Below are positions 1,377 through 51,273 of a stretch of DNA of 64,000 nucleotides, one piece after another. Both the position numbers and the translations under genes were made by a program. Below the pieces are notes generated by a model. The model did no database searches. It was not told where the DNA came from and saw only the letters and a program-made list of their open reading frames with translations. Position 1 is the stretch's first letter. Each line of letters opens with the position of its first letter. The stretch is taken from NCBI GenBank assembly GCA_001661245.1, contig KV454015.1:1042924-1106923 (forward strand), given 5' to 3'. The DNA is from Pachysolen tannophilus NRRL Y-2460 (taxonomy: Eukaryota).

Positions 1377-2213
1377 TTAGTTAACCAAAGCTGAAGCAGT
1401 TGCAGATTCGTACTTCCAGTTTGGAGGTAAAACTGAAACAGTTCTGTAGTATCTAGCTAATCTGTGGATTCTTGATTCGATTAAAATTAATCTGAATTTA
1501 GAATCTTTGTCTTTTCTATTTCTGTCTAAATGTTTTCTAACAGAGACAGCTTTCTTGATTAAGTAGTATAAATCTTCTGGAATTTCTGGAGCTAAACCAT
1601 TTGACTTTAAGATTCTTAAAATCTTGTTACCAGTGATAACTTTAGCTTGAGTAACACCGTGAGAATCTCTTAATTGAACACCAATTTGAGAAGGAGTTAA
1701 ACCTTTTCTAGCGTATTTGATGATTTGTTCAACAACAGCTTCTTGGGACAATTTGAACCAAGCTGGAGCATTTCTTGAATATGGAATGGCACTCGATGAG
1801 ATACCTTTACCCTGTAATAAAAAAAAAATAAAAGTTAGTAAACTTATTTTAAAAATGAAAAACCTACTTGAATATAAATATATTACCTATAGAGTAAAGC
1901 TTAGCAATTTGGAAACAACCATTTTCGCAACAACAACAACAGCAAAAAAGGTTGTTGAACTCATTACTGAGTCAGCTCCCTGCCAAGTCAATATCTTGCA
2001 AAAATGATTTATTATCGCTTCCAAATACCAAAAATCTTTCTCCTGGGATTGATACATTTATTTCTAGTTCTCACACAAAACTGGTATCGAACAGTATATA
2101 ATGGACATCAGTTCAGCTCATTTTAGAACAGTATGTCGCCACCGAATCGATCCAAATTTTGTAATATATCAGAGGATTCAAATATTACACACCTTACTGT
2201 GCATACGACCCAT
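1377..2213 (-). CDS. RPS13: 40S ribosomal protein S13 (uS15); exons 2213-2193 and 1811-1377, intron 1812-2192
   Basis: Spliced product [29 protein letters not shown]...[16 protein letters not shown]. Donor GTGTGT, branch TACTAAC, acceptor CAG. Confidence 0.98.
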
Positions 2214-2574: not shown

Positions 2575-3151
2575 TTATTCAACAATCTTTTCCTCGATAT
2601 CTTGGAATTCATCTTCATCTTCAATTTGTATAACTTTTGAAACTCCTGCTTTTTCTCTAAATAATTCCACTGCACCTGCGTATAACATCTTACTTTCCTG
2701 TGTTGATGTAGCCGGTCTATAGTATATTAACACTAGAGGTGATTTAATTCTTCCATCTTTCAACTTATAAGGATACGATAACACTATAAAACTTGGTGAA
2801 TTATCCGGTAATTCATCAACCAATTCATCAATACTTTTAGCAACTTGATTATCTGATTTTACTTCATATGTTTTCTTATCAATTTCATCTGTTCCAAAAA
2901 CTCGTTAATAATTGTTGTTAGCAGTTATTATCTCCATCAACACCCAATTAAAAATGAAAAATCATTACAAATATACTTACAAGTTATAGCTTCAAGTGTT
3001 GTAGCTCTTGAGCTTTGAAATCTAAATTTTTTTAGCTTGGTTAAAGTATCTTCAGAAAAACTATATAAAACTGAAGACTATAATAATTGTTAGTTTGATC
3101 AATTCATATGAGAAAAAAAATAATAATTTTTCCAATTCAATTACATACCAT
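2575..3151 (-). CDS. AIM7: Glia maturation factor (ADF-H family Arp2/3 debranching factor); exons 3151-3149, 3077-2981, 2888-2575
   Basis: Two introns (GTATGT..AACTAAC..TAG and GTAAGT..TGCTAAC..CAG) give M|SSVLYSFSEDTLTKLKKFRFQSSR...Y|EIDKKTYEV...ELPDNSPSFIVLSYP...KMLYAGA, a GMF signature. Confidence 0.93.
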
Positions 3152-3228
3152 AATTTACAAAATGCTAATCATCAATTCAATAAAAATAGATATTTTTTAT
3201 TCTAACCAATTGCCCCATATCAAGCAAC

Positions 3229-3262
<34 letters not shown>

Positions 3263-3479
3263 CTATGTATGATGATAATAATAATAATAATAATAACCTT
3301 TAAATGGAATTACTAACTAACCTAACCCGTAGAAAGCGCCGCCATTCTCGCCGAGCTTTAATAGCCGTGTGGCTAATCTGCAATCACATTTAGAACCTCT
3401 TAAAAAAAATAAAAAAAAAAAAAAAAAAAAGCCACATATTTCCCTTTTCATAACTAGGGTTTTAGGCTTTTATTGTTTT

Positions 3480-4030
3480 CTTATCATTTTTTCTTTTTTT
3501 TTGCTTTTTTAGTAAGCTGCTGAGCCGCAACGTCATCGTCATATATTAAAGCTGTACATCGCTACAGTCAAATTCCATGCTTAATTTTTTTAACTTTTTA
3601 ACTTTTTTTTTTTTCTTCTTTCCTTATCGGTGAAGAATAACTGGTCAACAGATAAACCAGCTAAAGCTACATTTACAATGCACCCGGAATCGGCAAATCA
3701 TCAAAAAAAACTGTCTGCTTTTTTTTTTTTTTTTTACAATCCATTAGCCACTTTTTTTTTTCTCTCTTTCTTTGCTCTTCTGTAAACGCTTTAAAAACTT
3801 ATCCTGGGGTGAAAATCAAGCCGGTAAAATTGGTGTAAAAAAAAAATTTTTTTTTTTTTGTCTTCATGCAGTATCTATCTATCTATCTATCTAATATGCA
3901 GCTCGAGCGAAATTAATCAATCATACCTGACTTAAACATTTTGGTCTGAAAATCAAAGATTTGATGATAGATTTTATCAGACAAGTGATATTGATTGATC
4001 ATCAGTTTTCTTTTTTTTTTTTTTTTTATC
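3480..4030. promoter_or_regulatory. GATA-factor (nitrogen catabolite repression) sites in the DUR3 promoter
   Basis: Several CTTATC/GATAA/TTTATC copies (about 3480, 3623, 3651, 3798, 3974, 4025) upstream of a urea permease; TATA-like TATATAAA near 4058. Confidence 0.6.
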
Positions 4031-4171
4031 TTTCTCCAATTTTTTTTTTTCAAAAAATATATAAAAGGTTATAAACTGCTGTAGAGGGAAGAGATCAAAT
4101 AAAATTTTTTTTATATTTGGAATACCCATAATTGAAATTTTTTCAAAAAAAAGGTATTGGATTTCGAGAAG

Positions 4172-6334
4172 ATGTCAACGTCAATTGCAGCTCTTCCGCA
4201 AGGAGCAGGTTATGCTGTTGTTGTTGGTTTGGGGTTTGTTTTTTCCCTTGGTATGATTGGAACCACTTATATCTTGCGTCGTTATCAAAAGGAAATTATT
4301 ACAGCAGAAGAGTTTTCTACAGCTGGTAGAAGTGTGAAAACAGGTCTTATTTCAGCCGCTGTTGTTTCTTCATGGACTTGGGCTGCTACTTTACTTCAGT
4401 CATCAACTGAAGCTTACGAGCATGGTGTTAGTGGACCTTTCTTTTATGCTAGTGGTGCTACTGTTCAAATTGTATTATTTGCATTTGTTGCAATTAAGGC
4501 AAAACAACTTGCTCCTGAGGCTCATACTTATTTAGAAATAGTGAAAGCTCGTTATGGTTCTACTGCACATTGGGTTTATATGTTTTTCGCAATTGCTACA
4601 AATATCCTCGTTACTGTAATGTTACTTACAGGTGGATCTGCTGTAATATCTGATTTGACTGGAATGTCAACTCCAGCTGCTTGTTTCCTTTTACCTGTTG
4701 GTGTCATGATTTATACATTGTTTGGTGGTATAAAAGCAACTTTCTTGACAGATTATGCTCATACTATAGCAATTGTGATTATAATTTTAACATTTGCATT
4801 CACAACATACCTGACAAATGAAACTTTGGGATCTCCAGGTGCAGTATGGGAACTTATCAAGAAAAGAGGTGAAGAATCACCAGTCTCAGGTAACGCAGGA
4901 GGTTCATACCTTACAATGCAATCCAAATCAGGTGGTATCTTTTTCGTCATTAATATTCTGGGTAATTTTGGTACTGTCTTTTTAGATAATGGTTATTGGA
5001 ACAAAGCCATTGCTAGTTCACCAGCATCTGCTTTACCAGGTTACGTTCTTGGGGGTCTAGCTTGGTTTGCAATTCCTTGGCTTACATCCACAACTATGGG
5101 TCTTGCATGTCTTGCCTTGGAAGATCAACCTTCATTCCCAACATATCCAAACAGATTGACTTCAGATCAAGTCTCTTCAGGATTAGTTTTACCAAGTGCT
5201 GCAGTTGCATTAATGGGTAAAGGTGGTGCTGTAGCAAGTTTAATTATGGTTTTCATGGCATGTACCAGTGCTTTGTCAGCTGAATTTATTGCAGTATCTT
5301 CAATTTTTAGTTATGATATTTATAAAGGTTATTTCAATCCTAAAATAACTGGAAAAAAATTGATTATGACTTCACATTTTGCTGTTGTTGCATTTGGTAT
5401 TTCTATGAGTGGATTTTCAACTGGATTATATTATGCTGGTGTTAGTATGGGTTATCTTTATGAACTTATGGGTGTTATTATTTCTGCAGCTGTTATACCT
5501 TCTACATTAACATTAATGTCAGCAAAACAAAATAAGGCTGCAGCAATTTTATCTCCAATTTTAGGTACTGCTGTAGCAATTGCAGCATGGTTAGGCTCTA
5601 CTAAATCACTTTATGGCTCCGTAAGTTATGAAAATACCTTTGAAGATGATCCTATGTTAATTGGTAATGTGGTTGCATTACTTTCTCCAATTATATTTAT
5701 ACCTATTCTTACGATAGCTTTTAAACCTCAAAACTTCAATTGGGAAATATTGAAAAACATCAAACGTGTTGATGAAACAGTTGAGATCCTTGAAGCTGAA
5801 AGCTCAAATAAAAAAGTCGATGATAATGAAAAAATGGAACCAGTGACTTCTACAATAACTGAATATGCCCATGGAATTGCTGAAGAACGTCGTCTGATTG
5901 CCATGAAAGAAGAAGAAGAAAATTTAAGAAAAGCTTCAAAAACAGCTGGTATCATATGTTTGGTTCTCTTACTTTGTTTTGTCATTTTATGGCCAATGCC
6001 AATGTATGGAACTGGGTATATTTTTTCAAAGAAATTCTTTACTGGTTGGGTCGTTGTTGGAATTATTTGGATATTTTTCACTGGATTCATGGTTTGTATA
6101 TTCCCATTATATGAAGGAAGAGAAGGCATATACACATCTCTTCGCGGTATATACTGGGATCTCACTGGACAAACTTATAAACTTAGAGCATGGCAAAACG
6201 AGCATCCAGAGAAACTTCATGCAGTTCAAAGTCAAATTTCTGCAGAAATACACAGAAATGAGAATATTGAACAAATAATGGATCCAACTAGCTCTCCTAG
6301 AATTGATGAAAAAGAATCTGCTTCCACTTCTTGA
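4172..6334 (+). CDS. DUR3: Urea/polyamine active transporter (sodium:solute symporter family)
   Basis: Motifs [37 protein letters not shown] and [17 protein letters not shown], with many TM helices. First ATG at 4172. Confidence 0.95.
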
Positions 6335-6587
6335 GTTGATTTTCTCTTTTTTTGAATATTTTGTTTTCTTTTTTTTTTTGCCTTTCTTTTCTCTAAATTT
6401 TGTGTTTTTTTTCTTTTGTGTGAGTAGTTCTACTTTTGAATTATTAGTGAAAAATAGTAATTGAGCTTCTAAGTTGTGTATTATAAATTACCAATGTATA
6501 TTCTATAGTTGTTCAACATCTATTTACAACTCTTTGCAAAAAAAATAAAGGAAAAAAATAAATAAAAATCAATCAATCTTTAAATCT

Positions 6588-7898
6588 TCAAGCTTCACCA
6601 ATTGCTCTTAATTCATCGTATTTAATAACGGCATTCAATAAAGTCTTAAACCCATTCTCACATTGTTCTGGAGTACTATACTCTTCTGGATTATGACTAA
6701 CTCCATCTTTACTAGGAATGAAAATAAAACCTGTTGGAACTCTAGCTGATGTAGAACATGAATCATGGCCAGCACCACTAATCATTTTGATGCAGTTTTC
6801 TTCTCCAAATAATGCATTTGAACTTTCTTCGACACATTGAATACATTTTTCATTAAAATGAACAGCAGGAGAAGTATAGATATGTTCAAATTCGACTTTT
6901 AATGGCTTTGAAGTTTTTGATCCGTTACCTTTTTCTGCAATAAGTTCAAATTCCTCTTTGAGCTCATTGATAATTGTAGCTAACCCTTGATCTGTCTCAT
7001 GTCTGGCATCTAATGTAAAACTGACTTTATTTGGAATTACATTTGCTACAGCAGGCTCTAAGTTTAAAATACCAACAGAGCATAAACCAGAATTTTTGTG
7101 AGCAATTTCATTGGCCTTGACAACCATTTGAGATGCGGTCAAAAGCGCATCTGCTCTACTATTCAAAGGAGTAGTCCCAGTATGTTGTGCTTTACCTTTA
7201 ACAATAACATTATACCATACGTATGCCTGAACACCAACAACAATTCCAATTTCCTTTTTTTGTTCTTCCAAGATTGGACCTTGCTCGATATGTAATTCAA
7301 AATGAGCAGCAATTGGATTCAGTTCATAATTTGCTGGAATATCTCCTAAATACCCAATTCTTTCTAATTCATGTTTAACTGTAACAGGTTTGGAATCTGT
7401 AACAGATTCCATCTTGTAAATCTCTTCTTTTGTTTGTAACCCAGCCCAGACAGAAGAAGCCATTAAACTTTGTGGGAAACGAGCACCTTCCTCATTCATC
7501 CAGTTAATAACTCCAACGGGATAGTTAGGAGTAAACCCATTGTCTTTAAAAGTTCTCAAGACTTCTAAACCAGATAAAACTCCCAAGATACCATCGTATC
7601 TACCACCAGTTGGTTGAGTATCAAGGTGAGAACCCATGCATGTTGGTGGACCTGTATTTTTACCCGGATAAATTGCAAACATATTTCCAACTTCATCAAT
7701 CTTAATTTCACAACCCAATTTTTTAGTCTCTTCATAAAACCAATCTTTAACTTTCTTATCTTCATCACTTAAAGCTAATCGGCAAACTCCTGTTTCTGTA
7801 CTGGCGCTACCCCAAGCAAATTTGGCACCAAATTGTGCAGTTTCATGAATAGTCTTGATTAGCCTTCCAGGAGCTATTGTCAAAGCCTTAGCTGGCAT
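6588..7898 (-). CDS. PYD3: M20-family Zn amidohydrolase, beta-ureidopropionase / N-carbamoyl-amino-acid hydrolase (Pyd3-like)
   Basis: GSHLDTQP..G.YDGILGVL, NEEGARF, HFELHIEQGPILE, SGAGHDS and SKDGVSHN motifs; collinear with L. kluyveri beta-alanine synthase. Orthologue versus paralogue is unresolved. Confidence 0.8.
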   Translation of the reverse strand: MPAKALTIAPGRLIKTIHETAQFGAKFAWGSASTETGVCRLALSDEDKKVKDWFYEETKKLGCEIKIDEVGNMFAIYPGKNTGPPTCMGSHLDTQPTGGRYDGILGVLSGLEVLRTFKDNGFTPNYPVGVINWMNEEGARFPQSLMASSVWAGLQTKEEIYKMESVTDSKPVTVKHELERIGYLGDIPANYELNPIAAHFELHIEQGPILEEQKKEIGIVVGVQAYVWYNVIVKGKAQHTGTTPLNSRADALLTASQMVVKANEIAHKNSGLCSVGILNLEPAVANVIPNKVSFTLDARHETDQGLATIINELKEEFELIAEKGNGSKTSKPLKVEFEHIYTSPAVHFNEKCIQCVEESSNALFGEENCIKMISGAGHDSCSTSARVPTGFIFIPSKDGVSHNPEEYSTPEQCENGFKTLLNAVIKYDELRAIGEA

Positions 7899-8606
7899 CT
7901 CTTCTCAATTGAAAAATTATTTTTGCAGTAAGAGAAACTCCATTCTACTTGCATTTTTGATTCAAGTTAAGTAATTCTTGTCTTTAAATATCCGGGGTCT
8001 ATTTTTTTTAGACTCGCCTATTTAACTGATAAGAATTTTAGTTCGCCTAAATTCAATTCAATTTGGTAATTCTATAGATAGGGGTACCAGATAAGAGATT
8101 GACCCCCCAACGGAAATCGGTGATCACCTGTTGTATCTTTGTGAACGACCGTATAAATGGGTTTTACAGAGTAATAGGAAACAACAAAATCACCCAATTA
8201 TGGGTTCTCTTGATGAAGGAATCAATTTTCATCTTGTTGGAGATATTCTGCTTGCTTTTGCTTTAATTTTACATATATATATATCCATATATCCATGTGT
8301 ACTTGTCTAGTATTTTAGTTGTAAATTTCACTATTGTATACATGAATTTGATCGTATCTGCATGAATAACTTTTTAAATATTCTAAATAGATAAGTAAGA
8401 AACAGCTCTGACATCTGATGCAAAGAGCGGTTATGATTTCTTTTTTGGAATGGTAAGGGTTTCCATTTCAAGAAAACGATGGGTAATATAAAAAGAATTT
8501 CATTTCCTTGGTCTTCTTTTTTTTTTTAGTATTCTAGCTCATTAGGTACTATTTTCCATCTATCACCGTATAATAGAAAAAAAAATTGAGATTTTTCCCA
8601 TAGGCG
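7899..8606. promoter_or_regulatory. Divergent promoter shared by the carbamoylase and the second permease, with GATAAG sites
   Basis: GATAAG at 8028, 8090 and 8390; CGGAAATCGG at 8111; TCGCCTA twice (about 8014 and 8043). Confidence 0.6.
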
Positions 8607-10646
8607 ATGAGCGAATATATTTTGAGTCAAGGCTATGGTTATGGTTACGCTGTTGGGTTAGGGGCACTATTTTGCTTCATTATGTTAACCATTACCAAAT
8701 TATTGACAAAATATATGGGCCAAGTACAAAATTCTGAAAGATTTTCTACAGCAGCTCGTAGTGTCAACTCTGGTCTTATTGCATCGGCTACAGTCAGTTC
8801 TTGGACTTGGCCAGCAACTTTACTTTCTTCTTCTACATGGTCGTATAGCCATGGTATAAGTGGTTCATATCTTTACGGAGTTGGTGGTACAATTCAAATT
8901 ATTCTTTTTGTCTTACTTGCTTTGGAAATGAAAAGAATAGCCCCAGGTGTACATACGATTGCAGAGTTAGTAAGAGTCAGATTTGGTAAAACTGGACATT
9001 GGGTTTACTTGTGTTACTGTGTAGTCACAAATATTTTGGTTTCTTCGTTATTATTATTAGGTGGATCACAAGGTTTTGAAAGTACGTGTGGCATGCATAT
9101 AGTTGCAGCAAGTTTCTTATTACCATTAGGTGTTTGTATCTATACATTATTTGGTGGTTTACATGCAACTTTTTTATCTGATTGGATTCATACTGTTATT
9201 ATCTATATGATTATTTGCATAATGTGTTTTGTAACTTATGGTTCTTCATCAATAATTGGTTCCATAGATAAAATGTACGATATGCTTGAAGCAGTACAGG
9301 AAAAATTCCCAAATGCTACTGGTAAAAATTATTTGTCATTTGATGATCCACAAATGATCATGTTGACTTGGTCTGTGATGATCGGTGGATTGTCATCTGT
9401 CTTTGGTGATCCTTCTTATGGTCAAAAAGCTATTGCTGCAGATGCTAAAGGTATTTTTATGGGATATGTCCTTGGAGGTGTATGTTGGTTGGTTGTACCT
9501 TGGGCTCTTGGGACAAGTGCTGGTCTCACTGCTAGAGCTTTATTGTTAAACCCAGCATCATTTACTTATCCAAACGAATTGACAGATGATGAAGTAAGTG
9601 CCGGTTTACCTGCTATTTATGCAATGGGTAGTATATTAGGTAAAAGTGGAGCTGCTGCAGGATTGTTAATGTTATTCATGTCTGTAACATCTGCAACTTC
9701 TGCGGAACTAATTGCATTTTCATCAGTTGCAACATATGATATTTATCGTAGTTACATTAAACCTGATGCAACAGGTAAGGAATTGATCAGGTTTACTCAC
9801 CTTGCTGTTATAGGTTTCAGTTTATTCATGGCTGCAATTTCTATAGTTTTCAACTATATTGGTGTTACAGTGGGATGGCTTTTAAGTTTCACAGGTATAA
9901 TTCTTTCACCTGAAGTTTTTGCTATTACAATGACTTTATTCTGGAAAAAAATGTCCAAATGGGCTTTGATTATTGGTTGTCCATTGGGCACTTTATCTGG
10001 TGTTGCTTGTTGGTTGGGAACAACTGCTGCTTATAACAACAATCTCTTGGATAAAGATACCTTAGCAACAAACCCGGCTAGTTTAGTTGGTAATCTTGTT
10101 TCTCTATTTTCGGCTCCTATTTATTTTGTTATAATATCGTACTTAAAACCTGATGAAGAACCATTTGATTTTACTGTTTACGAGACCGCTTTTATTGCGG
10201 GTGATGACGCAGACACGGAAGAAAAAGCAGCCATGAAAGTTTCAGATGAAGAGAAAAGAAAATTAAAAAGGTTATCTTATGTTTGCATTGTCTTAAATGT
10301 GATTTTATTATTTGGCGCATATATAATCTTACCTGTTTCATATCTTGGCACAGGTTATACTTTCAGTAAGCCGTATTTTAGACAATGGATTATAATTATG
10401 ATGATTTGGTTGGTAATTGCAGCAGCATATATTGTCATCATGCCATTGTATCAAGGTAGACATGTAATGAAAGAGTTGGTAAATGCTATATTTAAAGGAA
10501 GAGAAACAGAATACCAACAATCTTTACATACCACTACCACTACTCACTTGGATTCAATGACCAGTTCAAATTCTGGTGATAAGAATGTACAAGCAGAAAC
10601 TCACAAAGATCTTGCAAATGTGAAGGTTCGATCTGTTGAACTGTAA
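8607..10646 (+). CDS. Second DUR3-family solute symporter (divergent paralogue, substrate unknown)
   Basis: SERFSTAARSVNSGL, SSWTWPATLL and GGLHATFLSDW motifs; has SVFGDPSYGQKAI where Dur3 has [13 protein letters not shown]. Confidence 0.9.
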   Translation: MSEYILSQGYGYGYAVGLGALFCFIMLTITKLLTKYMGQVQNSERFSTAARSVNSGLIASATVSSWTWPATLLSSSTWSYSHGISGSYLYGVGGTIQIILFVLLALEMKRIAPGVHTIAELVRVRFGKTGHWVYLCYCVVTNILVSSLLLLGGSQGFESTCGMHIVAASFLLPLGVCIYTLFGGLHATFLSDWIHTVIIYMIICIMCFVTYGSSSIIGSIDKMYDMLEAVQEKFPNATGKNYLSFDDPQMIMLTWSVMIGGLSSVFGDPSYGQKAIAADAKGIFMGYVLGGVCWLVVPWALGTSAGLTARALLLNPASFTYPNELTDDEVSAGLPAIYAMGSILGKSGAAAGLLMLFMSVTSATSAELIAFSSVATYDIYRSYIKPDATGKELIRFTHLAVIGFSLFMAAISIVFNYIGVTVGWLLSFTGIILSPEVFAITMTLFWKKMSKWALIIGCPLGTLSGVACWLGTTAAYNNNLLDKDTLATNPASLVGNLVSLFSAPIYFVIISYLKPDEEPFDFTVYETAFIAGDDADTEEKAAMKVSDEEKRKLKRLSYVCIVLNVILLFGAYIILPVSYLGTGYTFSKPYFRQWIIIMMIWLVIAAAYIVIMPLYQGRHVMKELVNAIFKGRETEYQQSLHTTTTTHLDSMTSSNSGDKNVQAETHKDLANVKVRSVEL

Positions 10647-10981
10647 TTGATAAGCTTATATTTGTCTTCGTTTTTTCCTGCTTCTTATTTTGATGGTTAT
10701 AAATTAATACTTTAATATACGTTCCAGCTGCAAATTCAGTCATAATTCTACTTATTTGATTTAAAGAAAAGAATCCTTATATTTTTAAAGCGTTATCATT
10801 AACATCAATCATATCACTAAAGTCAGCAAAAAAAAAAAAAAAAAGAAATAAATAAATAAATAAAACAAATAAGTAATAATAAACTAAAAAATAAAACATA
10901 AGATGAGACCTAGCATTAACATTCATTGCTATTAAGGCAATAGGTTATTGTCTATCGTAGTTTTCCAACAACTTAAAGAAA

Positions 10982-12942
10982 CTAATCTTCTAAGTTCTCG
11001 ATCATGCCTCTTTCCTGAGCAATAATTTTCAAAGCCAATAATCTAGAATAATATCTAACAATAGTTAAATTTCCACCCAGATACCAAAAATTTGGATGTC
11101 CTGAATACCTATAGATAGCTCTAAATTCTCCTTCGTTATCCAACCCCCAAATTTCATTCAATTTACTGGCAACTTTTTCTCCAAAAATTTTTTCAGCTGT
11201 ATTTCTCATATTAGAGTAACCAGTGGCTAAGACAACAATTGAAACGTTATCGATACGTGAACCATCTTTGAATATGACGCCATCTTCAGTAAATCTTTCA
11301 ACTTCGACACCTTGTTTAACACGAATTTTACCGTCCGCAACTAACTTAGAAGCACCAACATCAATGCAGTAACCACCACCTCTTCTAAAATATTTACCGT
11401 ACATACCGGTACCTGCATATCCAGAATCTAGTTTGAATCCTTTTGCAGTTAATTTCTGAATCATATCTTTCTCCAAGGTACAAGCTCTCCTAAAATGTTG
11501 TTGATGAACCAAATTCATTAACTTATAAGGCATTGACATAGCAATCATATCTGCAGTTTCTGTTTTTGGACCTTCTTGATCATATACGCCCGCAAGACTA
11601 ACCTTGGCACCTTTTTCAGCGTTAATGATACATGTTGAAGATCTTTGAACCATGGTAACTGTTGCACCTTGCTCGTAGAAATCTTGAGCAATATCGTGTG
11701 CAGAATTGCACGAGCCAACCACAATAGCATTTTCACCATTGTATTCTTTACCTGTAGAATGTTGAGATGAATGAACAATTTTACCTTTAAATTTGTCCTC
11801 ACCTTTAAAATGTGGGATATTTGGTTCACCAGAGTGACCAGTAGCCATGACTAAATGTTTTGGTTTAAGAATTGATACCTCTTTAGAGTCATTATCAATG
11901 ATTTTAACTGTCCAGTTTTTTTTTCTTGATTGAACTCTGAACCTACAACTGTCTTATTGGTCCAATAATTCAATTCCAATGAATCTGCATAATTTTGAAA
12001 CCAATCACCCAATTTATCCTTTGGAGTATAAATTGGCCAAATTTCTGGGAAATTTAAATAAGCTAAATGATCTGCCCAAACTGGATCATGTAAAACTAAA
12101 AATGAATATCTTTTTCTCCAATTATCACCAATTCTTTGATTTCTTTCAATAATCAAAGAATCTAAACCCATAACTTTTAAACGAGCAGAAACACTAAGAC
12201 CAGCTTGACCACCTCCAATGACCAAGACAGTTGGTTGTTTATCACCACCGTATTCAAACGATTTCTTTCTTCTTTCCAACCAAGAAACTCTACCGACATG
12301 TTGACCATGGTTTACACCTAATGGTCTTCTTTCACCAAGTTGTTGTTCATTACCATATAATTCATCCAAAGTAGTGAATATAGTGAAAAGCCTAAGACCG
12401 CCGTTAAATTCCGAATCTTTCTCATCACTAGAAACCAATCTTAAAAGACCTCTACCTGTCCCATATTTTGTTTTAAATTTGATATAAACTTGAACCCATT
12501 CAATTGGGACTGGGTTATGATTTGAAGGATGATGAACCGTTTGTAAAGAGACACCAGTAGGGAATCTGTAATCAGCATCTTTATCAATTTCAATATTTGA
12601 AAGATCAAAATTTGGTACTCTTTCAGTTAAATTGGACTTTATTTTTTCTAAACCATACCATTGATGGAATGTCCATGAAAGACACATATGATCTTTCCAT
12701 GCTGAATGAGATGCAATTAACTTATCCAAATTATTAAAATTACGATTTTTAATAACATCTTTAAATTCGGAAAGCCAAATATTGGCAATTGGAAGTAAAT
12801 TATTCTCTTTAAGAATTTTTGGATTTGGAGTTAAATTCCCATAAACTTTAGACAGAGGAATATCATTTTCATTAGGACCATAAGTCAATGGTGGATTAAC
12901 CATATCGGCCATATCAAACATATTTTCAACCACTGCTGGCAT
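10982..12942 (-). CDS. Flavin-containing monooxygenase (type II FMO-like, long N-terminal extension), interrupted by one frameshift at 11916-11924
   Basis: Two track ORFs carry successive parts of one FMO: VIGGGQAG (FAD), GDNWRKRY, ATGHSGEP, F.GKIVHSSQH, VVGSCNSAHDI (NADPH), ATGY. Adding one A to an A9 run restores EKKNWTVKII...KHLVMATG. Confidence 0.85.
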
Positions 12943-13836
12943 TTTGAAGAAACAATACAACAAATTGAAATTTTAAAAATAAAAATTTTATAATAGAAAA
13001 AACGGGTGTGTCAATTGATAATAGAACAACAATTGGTACAATTCATTCTACCACATAAGAAAATATCGTCAATTCTTCTGATATTTATAATTACTAGTCT
13101 GTAATGGCAAGAAAAGGGGTAGTCTATCCATTTATCCATTTCGATCAAAAAGCATTAGATTTTGGAGTATTTTGGAGTAATTACTCACATGGAGTAATTA
13201 CACGAAACAAACATAAACCCCAAAAAACAATTAAAGCATTCAAATAATAACTACAAAGACTTAATTAAAAAAAAAAATAATAATTAACTTCCCCATCAAG
13301 AGTGGTTTAAGTTTTAAATTGTTTACCATTTCTAATAATTATGGGTGGGTTTTAAAATCCTGCGGAGAAGCAAGCATACATATATTATTCATGCAGATTA
13401 ATTTTTTATACCCACTTTAACTTGACATCTTATAGTATCTTTATCATATTGATTCTTAATTTTTTTTGCTTTTACTACCTTGATTTTAAAGCTTACACTA
13501 TATTTTGACTTCAATTATAAGTTACTTCATAGATCATTAATTTATTTATAAACTAGTCATGTTTTAAATACTCTCCCCCAATATGCGTTTTAAAGTTTCT
13601 TGAAACATGACGAAAATCTTTACATTGTTTTACACTTACTCAAAAACTATCTATCAACTAGACAAAAAATTTATTTTTTCATTTTTTTTTTTATATTCAA
13701 TAAACTAAGCACATAAATTAAAATCTTTATAATCTACTCCTAGATAAGCAAGCGATGAGCCATGTACTAAACTCTTTAATTAGTTAATCTCGCTATCTTC
13801 TTCATCACCAGTCTTTTCTCACTAAAAAAAAAAGGC

Positions 13837-14639: not shown

Positions 14640-17600
14640 ATGATTCAACGTAAGTAATAGAAATACATAATTTTTTATTTTTACTTTTATAATTTTTGTT
14701 CAATCGTTTAAATATGAATTGATGTTAACATTGTGATTTCAAAAAAAATTTTTTTTTTTCCTTTTTCTGATTATAGCTAATTTACGTCAATCATTGACAC
14801 AAGAAGAACAAAAGATATATGGCCAATTATTTAAATCATTAGATCCTGAAGGTTTAGGTATTGTTACCGGGGAAGCCGCCAGATCCACTTTCGAGAAATC
14901 AGGGTTATCGCCAGCGGTATTGGGTGAGATTTGGCAAGTTGCAGATACTGAGAATAATGGGTTTTTGTCTCAATTTGGATTTAGTGTTGCAATGAGATTA
15001 ATAGGTCAAGTTCAACATACAGGTGCTTCGCCTAGTTTTGAATTAGCTCAAAACGCCGGTCCATTACCTAAGTTCCAAAGTTTACCATCTATATCACAGC
15101 TTAATGTTGGTAGTAGAGTTCCTTCTATACAAGCTGCACCTTCTTTGGGTGCATCACCACCTCAGCCAAATTTACCAGTTAATGCAGTTTTACCGCCATT
15201 GACTTCTCAAGATGTTATAAAATTCGGTCAATTATATGATCGTACAGCAAATAATGGTGTATTGGATGGTTCTCAAGCAAAAAGTATTTTTATAAAAGCA
15301 AAACTTCCAACTAGTGTGTTGGGTCAAATTTGGAATCTTGTTGATGAACAAAATCTGGGACAATTAACTAGACCAGAGTTTATCGTTGCTATGTATTTAA
15401 TTCAAAACACTTTGAATGGTTCCATAAAAAATTTACCACAAAGTATACCTACTGGTATATGGAATATTGCTCGAGGCGCATCTTCTAATTCATCTCCTCA
15501 AATTACAACAAGACTGCCAAGTTTAAGTCAACAAACAGGTAGATCGACAATAATTCCTACAAATCAATTGCAACTGAGAACTCCATCCCAATCTTCAGTT
15601 CAATCTGTTACATCATCTTCTGTTATTAATGATTGGGCAGTTTCTCCGCAATTGAAACAAGAATTTGATAAAATTTTTGATAACTTAGACACAAATCATA
15701 AAGGTGAATTAGGACCAACCGAGGTTGCTCAATATTTAATGACTTCAGGTTTACCTCAAGATATGTTAGCAGTCATATGGGATTTGGCAGATATACATAA
15801 TACAGGTGAATTTACTAAAAAAGAATTTAGTATTGCTTTATATTTAGTCAGAAAAAAATTACAAGGTCTGTCATTACCAGATGTTGTACCTGAAAGCTTA
15901 ATTGCTTCTGTTGGTATGTCACTTGATGTTAACCAATCATATCAACAACAACCTCAGCTGCCTCAATACAATCCAAAGTCTTCAATTGATGAATTGGCTG
16001 ATATTTTCTCTACACCTTCTCCAGTTACAAGTGCACCGGCTCCCCCAGCACCTAAATCAAGATTAACATCAACAGCTTCTAGTACTTCAAATCATACTAC
16101 AATAGTGAATCCGCTGTTAACTTCTTCTGTAACGGGTTCAAGAGCTGCATTTGTTCCATCTTCGAATTTTGGTCAAAAGATGGTTCTACAACAACAACAG
16201 AATGATGCAAATTCTAAAGAACCACCTTCTTTATTGCAAGAAAGTGAAGATAGTGGTGATGAAGAAGGTCCAATTCCTGCTGTTCCACTGAAAGAAAATC
16301 ATCAACCAACAATTCCGTCTCGTGAACAAAAACCACAATTTTCTGGCTCTGGATCAGCTCAAGGATCAAACTATGAAGTCTTTAGAAGTTTCAGTGAACA
16401 ACTGAATAATACCAGTGCTGGTTCCAGTGGTTCAGGTTCTTCTAAAACTTTCTCTAACCAACAATCATTACCTCAACAACTGCCAAATGTTAGTGATCGT
16501 CCACCTCCAGCTGTTGGTAACAAGGATTTATTAGCTGATGCTGATCCAGAAGTTTCTGGAAAATTATCACAAGCAACAACTGATATTGCAAATATTTCAA
16601 ATCAAATAAATTCACTTACATCTCAAACCACACAACTTAATGATAAAAGGGAGAGAGCAAGTAATGAATTAAAGAGAATTTTAGCTTTAAAAAATGATAT
16701 TGAAAGCAAGTTGACTAAATTGAGAGCATTGTATGATCAAGAAGTGAAACAGGTTCAAGAAGTCGAAACTGTTTTGATTAAATCGAAAAATGAAACTGAG
16801 GAATTGAGGAAAGAAGCATCATTGGTAGAGGCAAACTATCATGCTACTCAAGCAAAGTTACAAAACCTACAAATGCAATTTGAAGAAAGTCAAAAAGAAA
16901 ATCAATCTTTGAAGGAAAAATTAGGATTGGCTAATGCTGAAAATATTGAATTGACCAACCAATATGAAAACTTGGTAAAACAATCAAAACAACAAGAAAG
17001 TTTATTGTCTGTTAGTCAGCAACAGGTTAACGTTATCGAAACGAAGAATTCTGAGTTGAGAAAACAATTAGATCTGAAAAACAAAGAAATTGATCTGTTG
17101 GAAAATAATAGAAGCGAAAATGATGCAAGATTGATGGCATTGAAGGCCGAGGGCCCAATGCTTGAAGCTGCTCTTTCGGCAGCCCTAGCTACTTTTAATG
17201 CTACCAAGTCGCTGATATCAAATTCAAAAAAGGATATTGAATTCCACGAACAGCAAAATGACCAATATAGGAAACAGTTAGAGAGTCATTCAGCTTCTGA
17301 TACTACTAATTCTAGGAACGTTGAAGAAGAGCCGGTTGATATTCTGAAAGAGGTTTCAACAGGAAAATCCGAAAATTTTTTTGGTGGCCTCAAGGAGGCA
17401 AAAGAAGCTATAGATACAGCTGAAGAACTGCAGTCCCAGGGTGAAAAAGAATCTACTGCTACCTCAGGTCAGCAACTGAATGTAATGAGAAGTCCGACTA
17501 ATACCACTGTTGCAGCTTCCGAAAAGGAGACCGCTACGACGGAAACCCCTGCAACTAGCTCACAGCTTGATGAGGAGGAGCAAGATCCTTCACTGAACCA

Positions 17601-18984
17601 GCAATACCCAAATATTAATTGGCAATCTATTAGGCCTGAGTCTGCTACTTCGAGTGTTCAAAATAATGCTCCGTTGTCAGTCAGAGGTGAGGACAATATT
17701 TCAGAAAAGGATTCATCATCCGCTTCTAGCATCGCAAATGAAGAGGAATCTCCACTGGCCCTTGGTACTGCGCAACAACTAGAACAAACTTCTAATGACT
17801 TTGTTGATGAAACAGTAGCAGATGTAAGTGCGCCAACTCTTACTACAACTGTACCTGAAGAAGGAAAAGAAATTGATTCTATCGTACAAAATGTTTCATC
17901 GAGTGGAGAATCATATGAATTTGTCAATCCTCATGATGTAGATGAAAGTGGAAATGCAGCAGCTGCACCAGGGGCTGTCGGTTCTTCAGCTGCTAGAACA
18001 TCAAGTGACGAATTATCAAAAGACTCCCTGAAGCCATCTTTAACGGAAAATAAAGATGACGCAAAGGATGTCAAGAAGGAAGGGGAAGAGTATTCGGGTG
18101 TTGTTATGCCTGGTGGCCTTCCTGGTGAATTCGGTAATTCTGAGGGCGAATCAGTAAAGAAATCGTCAGATGATATTGTTGAGGGCACATCTACTACTTC
18201 AAGTAAGAGTCGGGTCACTTCTAAAAAGGACGACGAGGAGTTCCCTCCTATTAAGGAATTAGATTATCCTGAGAGTGATTCATCTGACGATGATGACCAA
18301 GAATTCCATGATAGTAAATTACCTGATGTTCAAAAGGTATCAGGTCAGTCACAAGTTGCTGTTGATCAGGTAAATAGTGCTACATTTGCCCCACAAACTT
18401 CAAGGCATTCCCAGGAAATAGTAGCTGATGATTTTTTCAATAATAAGGATTTTGAAGATTTGCAACCAGCTGTACAAACACAAGATGACGGTTTCCAGGA
18501 TAAATTTGAAGGTCTCCAAGAAGCACAAATTGAAAATGAAGACTTTAAGTTTAGTCCTGAAGCTGAACCACCTGCCACCACTGCATTTGATAATCAGTTT
18601 TTTGGATCATCAACTAGTGATGCGAATGCTTTACAGTCGCCTGGTGCGTTCGATGCATTTAACGAATTAGAGCCTGCCGTAAACGAAGAAAACAATGATG
18701 AATGGGAACAGTTGTTTGCTGGATTTGGCAATGCTCCACGCGACGGAAAACTACCACAACAATCTCAACAATCTCAAGAACCACAACTGGCTCAACTGCC
18801 TCCACATTCACAGAGTAGAACACTGTCACACTCAAAAATTGTGACCGGAGCACTGAATGCCCATGATTTGGCAATTCAGGAATTGGTTGGTATGGGATTT
18901 ACAGAAGACGCTGCGTTGAACGCTTTGAAACAGGAGAACTGGAATCTAGAGAACGCTACGAATTATTTGTTAGACAATGCTTGA
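14640..18984 (+). CDS. EDE1: EH-domain endocytic scaffold (3 EH domains, coiled coil, UBA); exons 14640-14649 and 14777-18984
   Basis: ATG ATT CAA C|GTAAGT..TGTTAAC..TAG|CT AAT joins in frame. Three EH repeats (LGEIWQVAD, LGQIWNLVD, LAVIWDLAD) and a C-terminal UBA (QELVGMGF...NWNLENATNYLL). Confidence 0.93.
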
Positions 18985-31767: not shown

Positions 31768-32346
31768 TTAATTATTAAATTTATGAGTGATTTTTGCAAC
31801 TCTAGCACCTAAAGATTCTGCAGTTAGTAAGTCAGTTTCTGGAGGAGCAAATTCGGCACTTTGATCAGCATTGGACTGAGTACCCAAACCAGTAAAAAAC
31901 CCACATCTATTTGGCTCATTTCCAGTAGATTGCGAATTATTGTTTAATGGCGGTAATCCTAATGGAACCCAAATCATTCCGTGCTGCGCAGCAAAAGTGA
32001 AAATTGAAAGCAAAGTCGATTGCTTATCACCAGAAAATGAAGCTGAATTGGTAAACCCAGCAGCAATTTTGTCTTGTAAGTTTCTTTGTCTAAAATAAAC
32101 AGGGGAAGTAGCTTCCATAAACTCTTTAAATTTAGCTGCGACATTACCCATATAAGTTGGGGAGCCAAAGATAAAACCATCAAAATTCTCAAGAGTGGCT
32201 ATCTCCTTTATTGCTTCATCTGACGTGAAAAGACGAGCAGTAACATTTGGAACCGACAATACACCTTTATAAACGTGTTCAGCTACTTTTTTAGTATGAC
32301 CCATACCACTATAATATATAATTGCAATTGAGACCTGTTTTGACAT
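31768..32346 (-). CDS. WrbA-related flavodoxin / NAD(P)H:quinone oxidoreductase of bacterial type
   Basis: YYSGMGHT FMN loop, FGSPTYMG, KIAAGFTNS.S.SGDK, AAQHGMIWV; no intron. Confidence 0.88.
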   Translation of the reverse strand: MSKQVSIAIIYYSGMGHTKKVAEHVYKGVLSVPNVTARLFTSDEAIKEIATLENFDGFIFGSPTYMGNVAAKFKEFMEATSPVYFRQRNLQDKIAAGFTNSASFSGDKQSTLLSIFTFAAQHGMIWVPLGLPPLNNNSQSTGNEPNRCGFFTGLGTQSNADQSAEFAPPETDLLTAESLGARVAKITHKFNN

Positions 32347-44244: not shown

Positions 44245-46060
44245 ATGGCTTCAGGTATGTTGATAATATATATTATTTTGTATGGTGATAATGATTATGA
44301 TTAATAAATGGAGGTTAAATAATTCCCTCTTACGTTCCCAATTTTTTTTTTTTAATCGGCGCGTAATTTTATTAATACTATTATTATTATTATTATTATT
44401 ATTATTGAATTTTTTTTATTTTTTCTTTTTATTTTTAATAAAGAAATACATTACTAACATTGAATGTAATGATAATATGAGTAAAGTGGTTGAAACATCA
44501 GTGAATGGAAAAGATCCAAGTTTGGGCAAGCATCATGATTTCAATGATTCAGTTAACGAATCTTTAGATACAAGTACTACCACAAATACCTTGGGTACTC
44601 AAAAGGAGAATGGTGGTATTTCCCTTGGTGCAGGGGACGCAGCTGTTGATTCCAATGGTGCTAGCTCTAATGGTGCTTCCACTGCTTCTGGTACCAATAG
44701 TGGTACAAATGGTGCTGGTGCTGCCAATGGTGCTGGTTCTGCGGCTACGAAAAAACCAGAAGTCAAAATAATTCGTCGTAAATTGAATGGTTATGTTGGA
44801 TTTGCTAATTTGCCAAAACAATGGCATAGAAAATCAATTAGACGTGGTTTTAATTTAAACATTATGGTTGTTGGTGAAAGTGGTTTAGGTAAATCAACTT
44901 TAATTAACACATTATTTAATCGTGATTTGTATAGTCATAGACTGCAAAATGATGGTTCTCTTAGTTTGGGTCAAAAAGAATTGACTTCTACAACTTCTTC
45001 AGGTAATTTTAGTGGATTGATAACAAATGATGTTACCATTGAAAGTGTTTCTACAGATATTGAAGAAAATGGTATTAAATTACATTTGACTGTACTTGAT
45101 ACTGTTGGTTTTGGTGATGCAATCAATAATGAAGATTCTTGGAAACCAATTGTTGAAGATATTGAAAATAGATTTAATACTTATTTGGAAGCTGAAAATA
45201 AAATTAATAGACAAACTATTGCTGATAATAGAGTACATGCTTTACTTTATTTTATTGAACCAACAGGTCATTCTTTAAAACCTTTGGATATTAAATTTAT
45301 GAAAGAAATTCATGAAAAAGTTAATTTAATTCCAATTATAGCAAAATCGGATATTTTAACTGAAGAAGAAATTTATGAATTTAAACAAAGAATTATGGAT
45401 GATATTAATAATCAAGGTATAAATATTTTTAAACCTCCTCAATATGAAAATGATGATGATGAAACAATATTAAATACTCAAGAAATTATGTCAAAAGTTC
45501 CATTTGCTGTTGTTGGTTCAATAGATGAAATACAAACAAAAGATGGTAGATCTGTAAGAGGACGTAATTATCCTTGGGGTATTATTGAAGTTGATAATGA
45601 AAATCATTGTGATTTTATTAAATTACGTCAATTATTAATTAGAAATTATATGGAAGAATTAAAAGAAACTACATCAAAATATTTGTTTGAAAATTATAGA
45701 ACTGAAAAATTGAAAAAATTAGGTATTCAACAAGATAATTCTGTATTTAGAGAATTTGATCCTTCTTCAAGACAAGAAGAAGAAAAAATTTTACATGAAG
45801 CAAAATTAGCTAAAATGGAAGCAGATTTGAAAACAATTTTTCAAACAAAAGTAAGCGCAAAAGAGAAAAAATTACAAAGTCAAGAATCAGAATTATTTTC
45901 AAAACATAAAGAAATGAAAGAAAAATTAAATGCAAATATTAAAGCTTTAGAAGAGAAAAAACGTACATTAGAAGCTGCAGCTAAAGCTCGTCTGGAACAA
46001 CAAGCAGCAGCATCAGCTCAACCAACACATCAAAAATCTCGTAAAGGTTTTTTACGTTGA
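44245..46060 (+). CDS. CDC3: Septin Cdc3; exon 1 44245-44254, intron from 44255 to 44486 or 44501
   Basis: ATG GCT TCA G|GTATGT and TACTAAC at 44452. Motifs YVGFANLPKQWHRKSIRRGF, GESGLGKST and AKSD, then a coiled coil ending KSRKGFLR. Confidence 0.93.
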
Positions 46061-46160
46061 ATTGAAAGTTTGAAAATGTTTTATTTATCTCTTTTAAGTT
46101 TTTCTTTTTTTTTTTTCTTCTTCTCTTTTCCAAATTTTCTGAATTATCTTTTTTTTTTTT

Positions 46161-46573
46161 NNNNNNNNNNNNNNNNNNNNNNNNNNNNNNNNNNNNNNNN
46201 NNNNNNNNNNNNNNNNNNNNNNNNNNNNNNNNNNNNNNNNNNNNNNNNNNNNNNNNNNNNNNNNNNNNNNNNNNNNNNNNNNNNNNNNNNNNNNNNNNNN
46301 NNNNNNNNNNNNNNNNNNNNNNNNNNNNNNNNNNNNNNNNNNNNNNNNNNNNNNNNNNNNNNNNNNNNNNNNNNNNNNNNNNNNNNNNNNNNNNNNNNNN
46401 NNNNNNNNNNNNNNNNNNNNNNNNNNNNNNNNNNNNNNNNNNNNNNNNNNNNNNNNNNNNNNNNNNNNNNNNNNNNNNNNNNNNNNNNNNNNNNNNNNNN
46501 NNNNNNNNNNNNNNNNNNNNNNNNNNNNNNNNNNNNNNNNNNNNNNNNNNNNNNNNNNNNNNNNNNNNNNNNN
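46161..46573. other. Scaffold gap (N run)
   Basis: Run of Ns. Confidence 0.99.
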
Positions 46574-47056
46574 TATATATAATTTTTTTTTTTTTTTTTT
46601 TTCTGTTTGTCGGGATAATGTTACTTAAAGTCAGTTTAGTTGAACCTTTTGATTTGAAAACAAAAAAAGAAAAGACAAAAAAAAAAAAATTTTAGAAATA
46701 TACTCCTTTTTATTCCAATATATGTATAGATGTGTTTTAGTTAAGAAAATAGACATTGTTTTCTTGACATTTTTCTTTTTTAGGTTTCGTATTTTCCAAT
46801 ATTTATATTTCTAGTGTTGTCTGTTTGCTTTTTTTTTGAAAATATTTCTTTTATTTTTTTTTTTATTTTTTAAAAAAAATAATTTGAAATGAAAATAATA
46901 AATTTTAATTTATTTTAAAAACATAGGTAAAAAAAAAAATTTATTTTGCTTCTGCTTATCGTTAATTGCTATATTATTTATAATATAAATTCTTTATTTT
47001 TTTTTTTATTTTTTTTTATTATTTTAATATAACAATTAAAATAAATTTATTAGAAT

Positions 47057-49887: not shown

Positions 49888-51273
49888 TTAAACCCAGTCT
49901 CTTCCTTTGATTCCTTTCAATTCATCTTGTGTCTTGACCTTACCATTTGTGAAATAACCGGAAGCAATTTTAGCATCAATTTCTACTCTTGAATCAGGTG
50001 GAATCATTTCATCTGGAATAGCAACTCTTTCAAGTATTGGAATACCTTGTTCTACAATGGCATCATACTTCATATTTGACATGGATAACATTCTATCAAT
50101 TTTACGAATACCCAAAAAATGTAATATATCTGGCATTAAAGCTTGAAATCTCATATCTCTAACACCTGCAATACATTCTGTACGATGGAAATATTCATCA
50201 GCGGTATCACCAAAATTTTTTCTAGCATTATAAACTAAATATTTTGTAATTTCACCTAATGATCTACCTTCTTTTCTAAAATAAATAACACAACCAACAC
50301 CACCTTGTTGTGCTTGTTTAGCAGCTTCTATTATACCAAAGATTAAATATGGTCTACAAGTACATAAATCTGAACCAAAAACATCTGATGAATTACATTC
50401 ATCATGTACTCTTAAAGCTAATTTTTTTGAAGGATCTGATAAAAATTCAGGGTTACCAAAAATATAAGCAGTTAATCCACCAATTGGTGGTAAAAAAGTT
50501 TTTATATCAGGTCTTGTAATTAATTCAGGGTACATACCATTTGTATCTTCAAATAAAGCTCTTCTTAAAGTTGCTTCTGAAATATTAAATCTTTTTGCAA
50601 CACCAGGTAAATACCAAACTGGTTCCACTGCAATTTTAGTTATTCTTAAATCACCATTTTGATTGGTAACTATATCACCATCAACTAATAAATTTCCCTT
50701 AATAACTTCATCTTTTAATTCTGCCATTTGTAAAAAAGCTTTTGTGACAGCTATAGTTGGTCTAATTTCAACATTTTCCTTTTGAGATAATTCAGAAAAT
50801 AACCATGGTGCTAAATGACCAAAAGGATCCATAGAAACAATTTTTTCAACTCCTGACCATTGAGGTTGTTGTTTAAAATTAAAAGGTGGTTCTGCACCTG
50901 TATAATCAGCTTTATGATTTGGACTTAAATTATTAGTACCAACAGCCAAAGCATGATAAATTGAATATGGCCCAGAATGAGCTCCAATTGTATTATGCTT
51001 TATTAAACCATCCCTATATCTAGTGGCTACAATCGGACCTCTCATAAACGGATCCGAGGCCCCCCAGTTTAATGGAATAGGTTTCATATTAGGATCATCA
51101 GAATTTGTAGTTAACACAATATCATTACCAAAAAGCTTATCGCTTTCTTTAAAATCTAAAAATTTCTCATCTTTATTATTGTGATTATGGGCGCATGAAG
51201 TATCATGAACCGATGTTTTCTCGGAAATACAAACATAAGGATTGTATGGAGCAACAGCGGCAGCTGGAGACAT
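49888..51273 (-). CDS. URC1: GTP cyclohydrolase II-like uracil catabolism protein (Urc1/Urg1)
   Basis: N-terminal WGA.DP..RGP, IGAHSG.YS.Y and EPVWYLPGVA domain, followed by RVHDECN.SDVFGSD.CTCRPYL and YFRKEGR.LGE. Confidence 0.88.
   Translation of the reverse strand: MSPAAAVAPYNPYVCISEKTSVHDTSCAHNHNNKDEKFLDFKESDKLFGNDIVLTTNSDDPNMKPIPLNWGASDPFMRGPIVATRYRDGLIKHNTIGAHSGPYSIYHALAVGTNNLSPNHKADYTGAEPPFNFKQQPQWSGVEKIVSMDPFGHLAPWLFSELSQKENVEIRPTIAVTKAFLQMAELKDEVIKGNLLVDGDIVTNQNGDLRITKIAVEPVWYLPGVAKRFNISEATLRRALFEDTNGMYPELITRPDIKTFLPPIGGLTAYIFGNPEFLSDPSKKLALRVHDECNSSDVFGSDLCTCRPYLIFGIIEAAKQAQQGGVGCVIYFRKEGRSLGEITKYLVYNARKNFGDTADEYFHRTECIAGVRDMRFQALMPDILHFLGIRKIDRMLSMSNMKYDAIVEQGIPILERVAIPDEMIPPDSRVEIDAKIASGYFTNGKVKTQDELKGIKGRDWV

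Follow-up and report, generated by a model that had tools for sequence, protein, structure and literature searches.

Do four neighbouring genes of the yeast Pachysolen tannophilus NRRL Y-2460, all of them with uptake or catabolic functions, form a nitrogen-scavenging unit, or do they lie side by side by chance? The genes occupy positions 4172-12942 of a 64,000-nucleotide stretch of contig KV454015.1, referred to here as the window, and encode two permeases of the DUR3 urea transporter family, an amidohydrolase of the M20 family and a flavin monooxygenase (FMO). CUG is read as alanine in this yeast, so later translations were made with table 26; the public FMO protein has Ala at positions where the standard code would give Leu.

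The reading favoured here, at a probability of roughly 45%, is a small, lineage-restricted nitrogen-scavenging gene neighbourhood, probably co-regulated, rather than a wholly new pathway. Its core would be the divergently transcribed pair of the amidohydrolase, termed PYD3 below, and permease 2. PYD3 would split N-carbamoyl-beta-alanine into beta-alanine, CO2 and NH3, and would probably act likewise on related N-carbamoyl-beta-amino acids; permease 2 would bring in this ureido acid, or else a small ureide or amide like it, and not urea alone. A putative canonical DUR3 lies on one side of the pair and a predicted long type II FMO (Baeyer-Villiger or heteroatom-oxidising) on the other. Co-induction when good nitrogen is scarce would proceed through shared promoter motifs and GATAAG sites. 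The FMO, with its gene broken in the assembly, is given no step in this reading. The genes and their promoter regions are arranged as follows.

3078-4171, plus strand: region upstream of permease 1, 1094 bp
4172-6334, plus strand: permease 1, 720 residues (Pfam SSF)
6588-7898, minus strand: M20 amidohydrolase (PYD3 ortholog), 436 residues (Pfam Peptidase_M20 and M20_dimer)
7899-8606, no strand assigned: divergent promoter of PYD3 and permease 2, 708 bp
8607-10646, plus strand: permease 2, 679 residues (Pfam SSF)
10982-12942, minus strand: FMO, split over two frames (Pfam FMO-like and Pyr_redox_3)
12943-13760, minus strand: region upstream of the FMO, with the shared motifs M1-M3

The four genes fill about 8.8 kb with no open reading frame (ORF) in between, where a metabolic cluster is taken to comprise at least three functionally related genes in physical adjacency. 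A preliminary description of the locus had placed them consecutively between AIM7 and EDE1, and they are found there; its family assignments (two DUR3-family permeases, an M20 enzyme and an FMO) are borne out by Pfam and by structure matches.

By its sequence, the amidohydrolase is a clear, full-length ortholog of PYD3 (beta-alanine synthase, or beta-ureidopropionase). It carries the M20 catalytic domain (PF01546, 6.5e-27) with the inserted dimerisation domain (PF07687, 2.3e-4). Residues 3-433 match the Lachancea kluyveri beta-alanine synthase 1r3n at E 1.4e-149 and 502 bits, far above the matches to other carbamoylases, ureidoglycolate hydrolase and allantoate amidohydrolase; scores to other relatives range from 146 to 302 bits (5thw, a deacylase, 302; 8c46, 249; 3n5f, 196; 4pxe, 171; 1z2l, 146). 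The motifs GSHLDTQP, YDGILG, NEEGARF, HFELHIEQG, FTLDxRH, GAGHDS and SHN are identical to those of 1r3n in the alignment, and we take them to hold the di-zinc ligands, the catalytic Glu and the substrate-binding Arg. Yeast relatives are 60-81% identical, and several are named beta alanine synthase. Because of the orthology to L. kluyveri PYD3 the likely substrate of the carbamoylase is already known, and the release of beta-alanine, CO2 and NH3 from N-carbamoyl-beta-alanine is the expected reaction; the proposal that the enzyme serves some other ureido source, left unnamed in the preliminary description, gives way to this assignment. Full-length M20 homology, the dimerisation domain and the aligned metal and catalytic motifs are thus common to the Pachysolen protein and L. 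kluyveri PYD3 (PDB 1R3N, 2V8D and others), whereas the Pachysolen gene differs in having a divergent promoter in common with a DUR3-like permease. A literature search, which did not extend to the L. kluyveri expression paper PMC3910958, where such a report is possible, found no paper in which PYD3 or beta-alanine synthase is clustered in a yeast with a DUR3-family permease or with an FMO.

The two permeases are 39% identical to each other. Permease 1 matches the plant DUR3 structures 9x5u and 9j7c at 501 bits, and permease 2 matches AtDUR3 (9j7c) at 387 bits. Both were compared with AtDUR3 at 15 pocket, gate and proton residues named in the available text of PMC11840088 (W93, W95, A96, T98, Y117, Q124, H222, N305, D312, Y315, W338, P342, E402, Y461 and P474). 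All 15 are identical in permease 1, which on this account is a canonical DUR3-type urea/H+ symporter. Permease 2 keeps 11 and carries the changes A96P, N305G, Y461L and P474A. Changes at these sites extend to its whole subfamily: in an alignment of 19 members, including a third Pachysolen paralog (P0105), two S. pombe proteins and proteins from Lachancea, Zygosaccharomyces, Pichia and Candidozyma, Tyr461 and Pro474 occur in none, A96P in all 19 and N305G in 18. In place of Tyr461 the subfamily has Leu, Ile or Met. The subfamily is widespread in yeasts and is also present in S. pombe.

According to the available text of PMC11840088, the mutation Y461A in ScDUR3 nearly wiped out urea-dependent growth, and a proline mutant in transmembrane helix 10 lowered uptake. 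Given the four pocket changes and the effect of Y461A, permease 2 is classed here as DUR3-like and not as a urea transporter; its residues place it in a separate sister subfamily, conserved but uncharacterised, whose outer gate differs. Both Pachysolen permeases are SSF/LeuT-fold homologs of DUR3 (AtDUR3, 9J7C and 9J7D; S. cerevisiae DUR3), and permease 1 has the full residue set, whereas permease 2 and its subfamily replace Tyr461, Pro474, Asn305 and Ala96, which would leave the outer gate larger and less polar. Permease 2 may therefore carry something other than urea, or not urea alone. No transporter for beta-ureidopropionate or dihydropyrimidines turned up in a literature search of yeast papers. 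Members of this subfamily are annotated as urea transporters by similarity alone; with permease 2 beside PYD3 here, a subfamily member beside an amidase elsewhere (see below) and two urea-critical residues changed throughout, a different substrate is a concrete hypothesis that is cheap to pursue.

The evidence for joint regulation lies in the promoters. The window contains 45 copies of GATAAG, where 33.8 would be expected. The 708-bp divergent promoter holds three copies (8028, 8090 and 8390, plus strand), as the preliminary description had indicated in giving the carbamoylase and permease 2 a common GATAAG-containing promoter, and three more lie upstream of permease 1 (3480, 3623 and 3798, minus strand). 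Six of the 19 intergenic copies therefore fall in these two regions, which make up 1802 of 19090 intergenic bases (binomial p 0.0065). A word search further recovered three motifs, each present in all three promoter regions.

M1, ACCCATAATT: 4124-4133 (plus), 8196-8205 (minus), 13337-13346 (minus)
M2, CTGCATGAA: 3863-3871 (minus), 8358-8366 (plus), and upstream of the FMO within 13385-13398 (minus)
M3, TAAAACCC: 3457-3464 (minus), 8159-8166 (minus), 13347-13354 (minus)

M1 and M3 each have three copies in the 64 kb, one per promoter region. M2 has five against 0.72 expected, an approximately 7-fold excess, and four of the five lie inside the cluster span; an extra copy at 6216-6224 (minus) falls inside permease 1 itself, at the 3' end of its coding sequence. 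Upstream of the FMO all three motifs are on the minus strand, in the sense orientation of that gene, and within 62 bp. M2 extends to a 14-mer, ATCTGCATGAATAA, shared by the divergent promoter (8356-8369) and the FMO promoter (13385-13398, minus). M1 in the divergent promoter lies within ACCCAATTATGGGT, a CC(A/T)6GG-like element that resembles an Mcm1/SRF site and would be a candidate for one.

Altogether the three promoter regions have five 8-mers, three 9-mers and one 10-mer in common. Controls comprised all 816 triples from the 18 other intergenic chunks of the window: none shared at least five 8-mers (maximum 2), none shared at least three 9-mers and three shared one 10-mer, a comparison tempered by the post hoc discovery of the motifs and by control chunks that are shorter on average than the test regions. 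The pairwise 14-mer is unexceptional by itself, since 5 of 153 control pairs share a word of 14 or more. Blastn between the promoters returned low-complexity matches and the 14-mer only, with no long-range promoter homology. The three motifs in three promoter regions amount to shared cis-regulatory elements, and together with the GATAAG sites clustered in the two permease/PYD3 promoters they make joint induction under a shortage of good nitrogen probable. The motifs may also serve as a way in to a regulator specific to the pathway, should there be one, in the CUG-Ala yeast clade.

A competing explanation is that four independent genes, three of them under ordinary nitrogen catabolite repression, have come to be neighbours with no common pathway or regulator, the motifs being general or fortuitous. 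M3 would fit this, as it is not over-represented across the window (3 copies vs 3.16 expected), and so would Ogataea polymorpha, in which, by the available text of PMC5720833, nitrogen depletion induces DUR3 and PYD3 within a general response. The word sharing of the cluster promoters, equalled by none of the 816 control triples, and the concentration of M2 in the cluster span speak against it. We consider a chance neighbourhood somewhat doubtful but well within the range of what may be true.

Linkage was assessed by proxy, as an equal size of the longest contig reported for each homolog, which shows co-location and not adjacency. In one relative among the Logan assemblies, the best homologs of PYD3 (P0242, 81% identity), permease 2 (P0002, 71%) and the FMO (P0143, 61% to the public model and 65% to the 288-residue ORF) all have a longest contig of 56,536 bp. 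This suggests that the three lie on a single contig in one related species; such agreement at 19-39% protein divergence counts against a chance neighbourhood.

Besides the caveat on the motif controls, several observations weigh against the favoured reading. The 56.5-kb co-location is itself a proxy, not adjacency, and concerns one relative only. Of 7 named species, 6 carry their PYD3 and permease-2-family homologs on separate contigs ([C.] railenensis, [C.] anglica, [C.] boidinii, H. burtonii, Sch. xylosifermentans and Cy. fabianii), and in Kuraishia capsulata only a 48% permease paralog shares the 1.64-Mb scaffold of PYD3. PYD3 and the FMO are on one scaffold (729 kb) only in Nadsonia fulvescens, one of three comparable species, being on different scaffolds in W. 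ciferrii and Sch. coipomensis. The FMO and three permease paralogs of L. mirantina are spread over four different chromosomes. Upstream of the FMO a single GATAAG (13743) occurs in 2049 bp, with no enrichment. Permease 2, which keeps 11 of the 15 urea-site residues, may still carry urea. Finally, neither a dihydropyrimidinase nor an allantoinase is present among the 29 ORFs of the 64-kb window scanned against Pfam, as the preliminary description had also reported, and it is the missing dihydropyrimidinase that matters here.

Sch. stipitis and the Candidozyma species, for which the two proteins come from different strains or species, are outside these linkage counts. By this proxy, linkage is seemingly confined to Pachysolen and, at most, a single relative. 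Conserved linkage across Saccharomycotina, which had been put forward as a test of the cluster and whose absence was to count against it, is suggested by the 56,536-bp contig of one relative and has no counterpart in most of the named yeasts that could be compared. The notion of the four genes as one unit fares alike: it gains from the three motifs in three promoter regions and the same co-location, and loses from the lack of linkage in most of the named yeasts compared, which is also what a chance neighbourhood would lead one to expect.

Adjacent uptake and amide-cleaving genes have precedents. The DAL allantoin cluster is a yeast permease-hydrolase nitrogen cluster of this kind, with allantoin enzymes where Pachysolen has PYD3. 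A metagenome search with the permease alignment returned one yeast contig (L001), on which a permease-2-family gene is divergent from an AS-family amidase in place of PYD3; the permease is 50% identical to the first sequence of the alignment (P0069) and 37% to permease 1. A context search with PYD3 as query found nothing in the metagenomes. Positions 1-15397 of L001 hold the amidase/DUR3-like pair, then a MAL-like pair (GH31 alpha-glucosidase and sugar transporter) together with a nucleoside hydrolase, and so read as a series of uptake/catabolic pairs. DUR3-DUR1,2 pairs are described for P. stipitis and other yeasts in the available text of PMC2784038, and those of P. stipitis, S. cerevisiae and D. 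hansenii resemble the Pachysolen pair in that a gene for uptake stands next to one for amide-bond cleavage, in divergent or tandem orientation, with GATA-type sites in the promoters. The Pachysolen locus differs in that its hydrolase is PYD3 and not urea amidolyase, and in adding two DUR3-family paralogs and an FMO. Taken with the L001 pair, these cases show DUR3-family permeases repeatedly paired with amide-cleaving enzymes, the hydrolase differing from case to case.

For the fourth gene, Pfam (PF00743 and PF13738) and the best structure match of both halves (8acs) point to a long type II FMO of the JsFMO-like, Baeyer-Villiger type, which is the class that both the sequence and the predicted fold give it. 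Its coding sequence is divided as follows.

10982-11917, minus strand: downstream reading frame (NWTVKII... to the stop), with the NAD(P)H-binding and C-terminal monooxygenase parts (Pfam FMO-like, Pyr_redox_3)
11925-12942, minus strand: upstream frame, with an NTF2/SnoaL-like N-terminal domain and the FAD-binding part, running on to a stop at 11851-11853 (8acs match)

The downstream frame matches residues 291-604 of JsFMO (8acs) at 220 bits, and the upstream ORF matches residues 130-285, including LHDPVW, at about 175-176 bits. An AlphaFold model of FMO residues 1-226 (12265-12942) has a confidence score (pLDDT) of 85.5, and its top Foldseek matches are 8acs chains (E 2e-8) followed by NTF2/SnoaL folds; Pfam gives no SnoaL match to this domain at E<=0.001. 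After JsFMO the closest fold is that of AtzH, an NTF2-fold protein of the atrazine/cyanuric acid pathway, at about 15% identity, which is probably just a shared fold. Equivalents of JsFMO His216, Asp217, Tyr458 and Arg571 are all present (LHDPVW; the first Tyr of GGGYC), with chain index 474 taken as Tyr458 and 587 as Arg571, an offset of 16 deduced from the His216 and Arg571 anchors in the available text of PMC10028610. The position equivalent to Tyr459 (GGGYC, about 11380) is Cys in Pachysolen, where all of 10 aligned relatives, and nearly all of 40, have Tyr.

JsFMO carries out Baeyer-Villiger oxidation of linear and cyclic ketones as well as sulfoxidation, according to the available text of PMC10028610. 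With JsFMO (8ACS) and FMO-E, FMO-F and FMO-G of Rhodococcus jostii RHA1, the Pachysolen protein has in common a class B monooxygenase domain and an N-terminal NTF2/SnoaL-like domain. It differs in being eukaryotic, in its place beside nitrogen-catabolic genes, in its frameshift in the assembly and in the Cys at the Tyr459 equivalent.

The frameshift had gone unremarked in the preliminary description, where the FMO stands as one open frame. The gene in fact consists of two ORFs in different frames, of 363 residues (11851-12942) and 288 residues (10982-11848), and the frame is lost where the coding strand has nine consecutive A (11916-11924, minus). With one nucleotide lost from this run, the gene has no intact open reading frame; ten A would restore a 13-residue KTV-VKI segment whose size is ungapped in 10 of 10 full-length homologs. 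The downstream ORF is 100% identical to the public protein PACTADRAFT_81553. The public 641-residue model (P0121) crosses the break with a 35-nt GT..AG intron and so deletes the 12 residues GSEFNQEKKTWT. Because these residues are kept in 10 of 10 homologs, a real intron is rejected, and the 35-nt segment is an annotation device, not biology. The public gene model is corrected accordingly, as a frameshift hidden behind a pseudo-intron. Programmed -1 frameshifting at A AAA AAA is likewise unsupported: the 96 nt downstream have a z of 0.54, and 141 of 200 shuffles fold as well.

Two origins of the break remain to be weighed. It may be a homopolymer error of the assembly, the gene being intact and functional in the living strain, or it may be a real and very recent inactivating mutation. 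The single 1-nt difference in an A run, both halves being otherwise free of stops and frameshifts, fits an error, as do the retention of all four catalytic or structural JsFMO equivalents and the exact match of a ten-A reading to the segment of the homologs. The other four nine-base runs inside ORFs of the window (all T, plus strand) break no frame, so that there is no sign of systematic homopolymer error in the window; for this count, three 12-base T runs within 44282-46582 were taken as outside genuine coding sequence. Five sequencing runs contain 98-99% of the sampled words of the region, a region-wide figure and not a read view of the A run. The Cys next to the catalytic Tyr, at a site where Tyr is invariant in 10 aligned sequences, counts against an error in being compatible with relaxed constraint. 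The odds of an assembly error are, in our estimate, even. A supposed second frameshift, between a septin gene and a 168-residue ORF at 46076-46582, was rejected: the septin frame terminates normally, and the ORF consists of T-rich, low-complexity sequence.

Bacterial relatives give a further view of the FMO. Within 8-kb flanks of 80 bacterial FMO loci (45-100% identity to the first sequence of the FMO alignment), PYD3 (M20) or permease (SSS) homologs were found at none, which counts against a general pathway, and no hydantoinase association was seen at these loci. A Pfam scan of neighbours covered 119 of 202 selected ORFs, which belong to 28 loci out of the 46 whose flanks were complete. Acyl-CoA dehydrogenases were present at 8 of the 28 and parts of ABC transport systems at 12; AMP-binding ligases, short-chain dehydrogenases and esterases lay near several, and M20 and SSF domains near none of the 28 among the scanned neighbours. 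These unrelated neighbours are what four independent genes would predict. The context fits ketone or organic-acid catabolism and lends no backing to ureide oxidation. At eight actinobacterial loci (L022, L029, L032, L033, L035, L036, L038 and L039; about 6500-7900) the FMO is preceded by a divergent acyl-CoA dehydrogenase gene and followed by ABC transporter genes. This arrangement hints at the native substrate class of the family.

The preliminary description had gone further and proposed a three-step route of import, oxygenation and decarbamoylation for a ureido, cyclic-amine or polyamine-derived nitrogen source. Spelled out, a permease would take up a cyclic ureide, a cyclic amine or a derivative of a polyamine, the FMO would add oxygen to this compound or open its ring, standing in for a dihydropyrimidinase-type step, and the M20 enzyme would decarbamoylate the product. 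The lack of a dihydropyrimidinase in the window leaves room for such a step, and the three motifs closely spaced in sense orientation in the FMO promoter, the FMO homolog in the 56.5-kb contig class, the common PYD3-FMO scaffold in Nadsonia and the conserved catalytic His, Asp, Tyr and Arg equivalents all agree with it. However, characterised FMO relatives act on ketones and sulfides, not ureides, in the available text of PMC10028610; no M20, SSS or hydantoinase association appears at the 80 bacterial loci; the PYD3 ortholog has a known natural substrate; the FMO promoter shows no GATAAG enrichment; and with the FMO frameshifted the route is broken, at least in this assembly. That the FMO supplies an oxidative step to decarbamoylation is thus not upheld, its solved relative being a Baeyer-Villiger and sulfoxidation enzyme with an unrelated bacterial context. 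The import, oxygenation and decarbamoylation route has little support, and we hold it to be quite improbable.

Also unlikely is a joint version of these ideas. The permease 2 subfamily would then be a ureido-acid or small-amide permease (here for beta-ureidopropionate) and not a urea transporter; with PYD3 and the FMO it would form a regulon of a dedicated factor binding ACCCATAATT, CTGCATGAA and TAAAACCC, and oxidative ring-opening or heteroatom oxidation by the FMO would feed PYD3 without a dihydropyrimidinase.

The cluster is bordered by two further genes.

About 2575-3077, minus strand: AIM7/GMF-like flank, two exons (stop-to-stop frames)
14992-18984, plus strand: EDE1-like flank, with EH, EF-hand and UBA domains (Pfam)

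The AIM7/GMF family name is our reading of the sequence. The 2-kb AT-rich gap before EDE1 holds no tRNA gene and no further ORF of at least 60 residues. Further out, a coding exon at 1377-1886 (minus) reads as RPS13 (uS15)-like; its frame stays open 5' of every ATG, so that a short first exon followed by an intron is implied. A 192-residue protein of the flavodoxin-like/NADPH-dependent FMN reductase family at 31768-32346 (minus) has, as far as seen, no relation to the cluster. About 37 kb from PYD3, at 49888-51273 (minus), a 461-residue protein combines GTP_CH_N (PF12471) and GTP_cyclohydro2 domains. This is the architecture that we take to be that of URC1/urg1, the first gene in the URC route by which yeasts catabolise uracil, and with PYD3 it would place two pyrimidine-catabolic genes on one chromosome arm.

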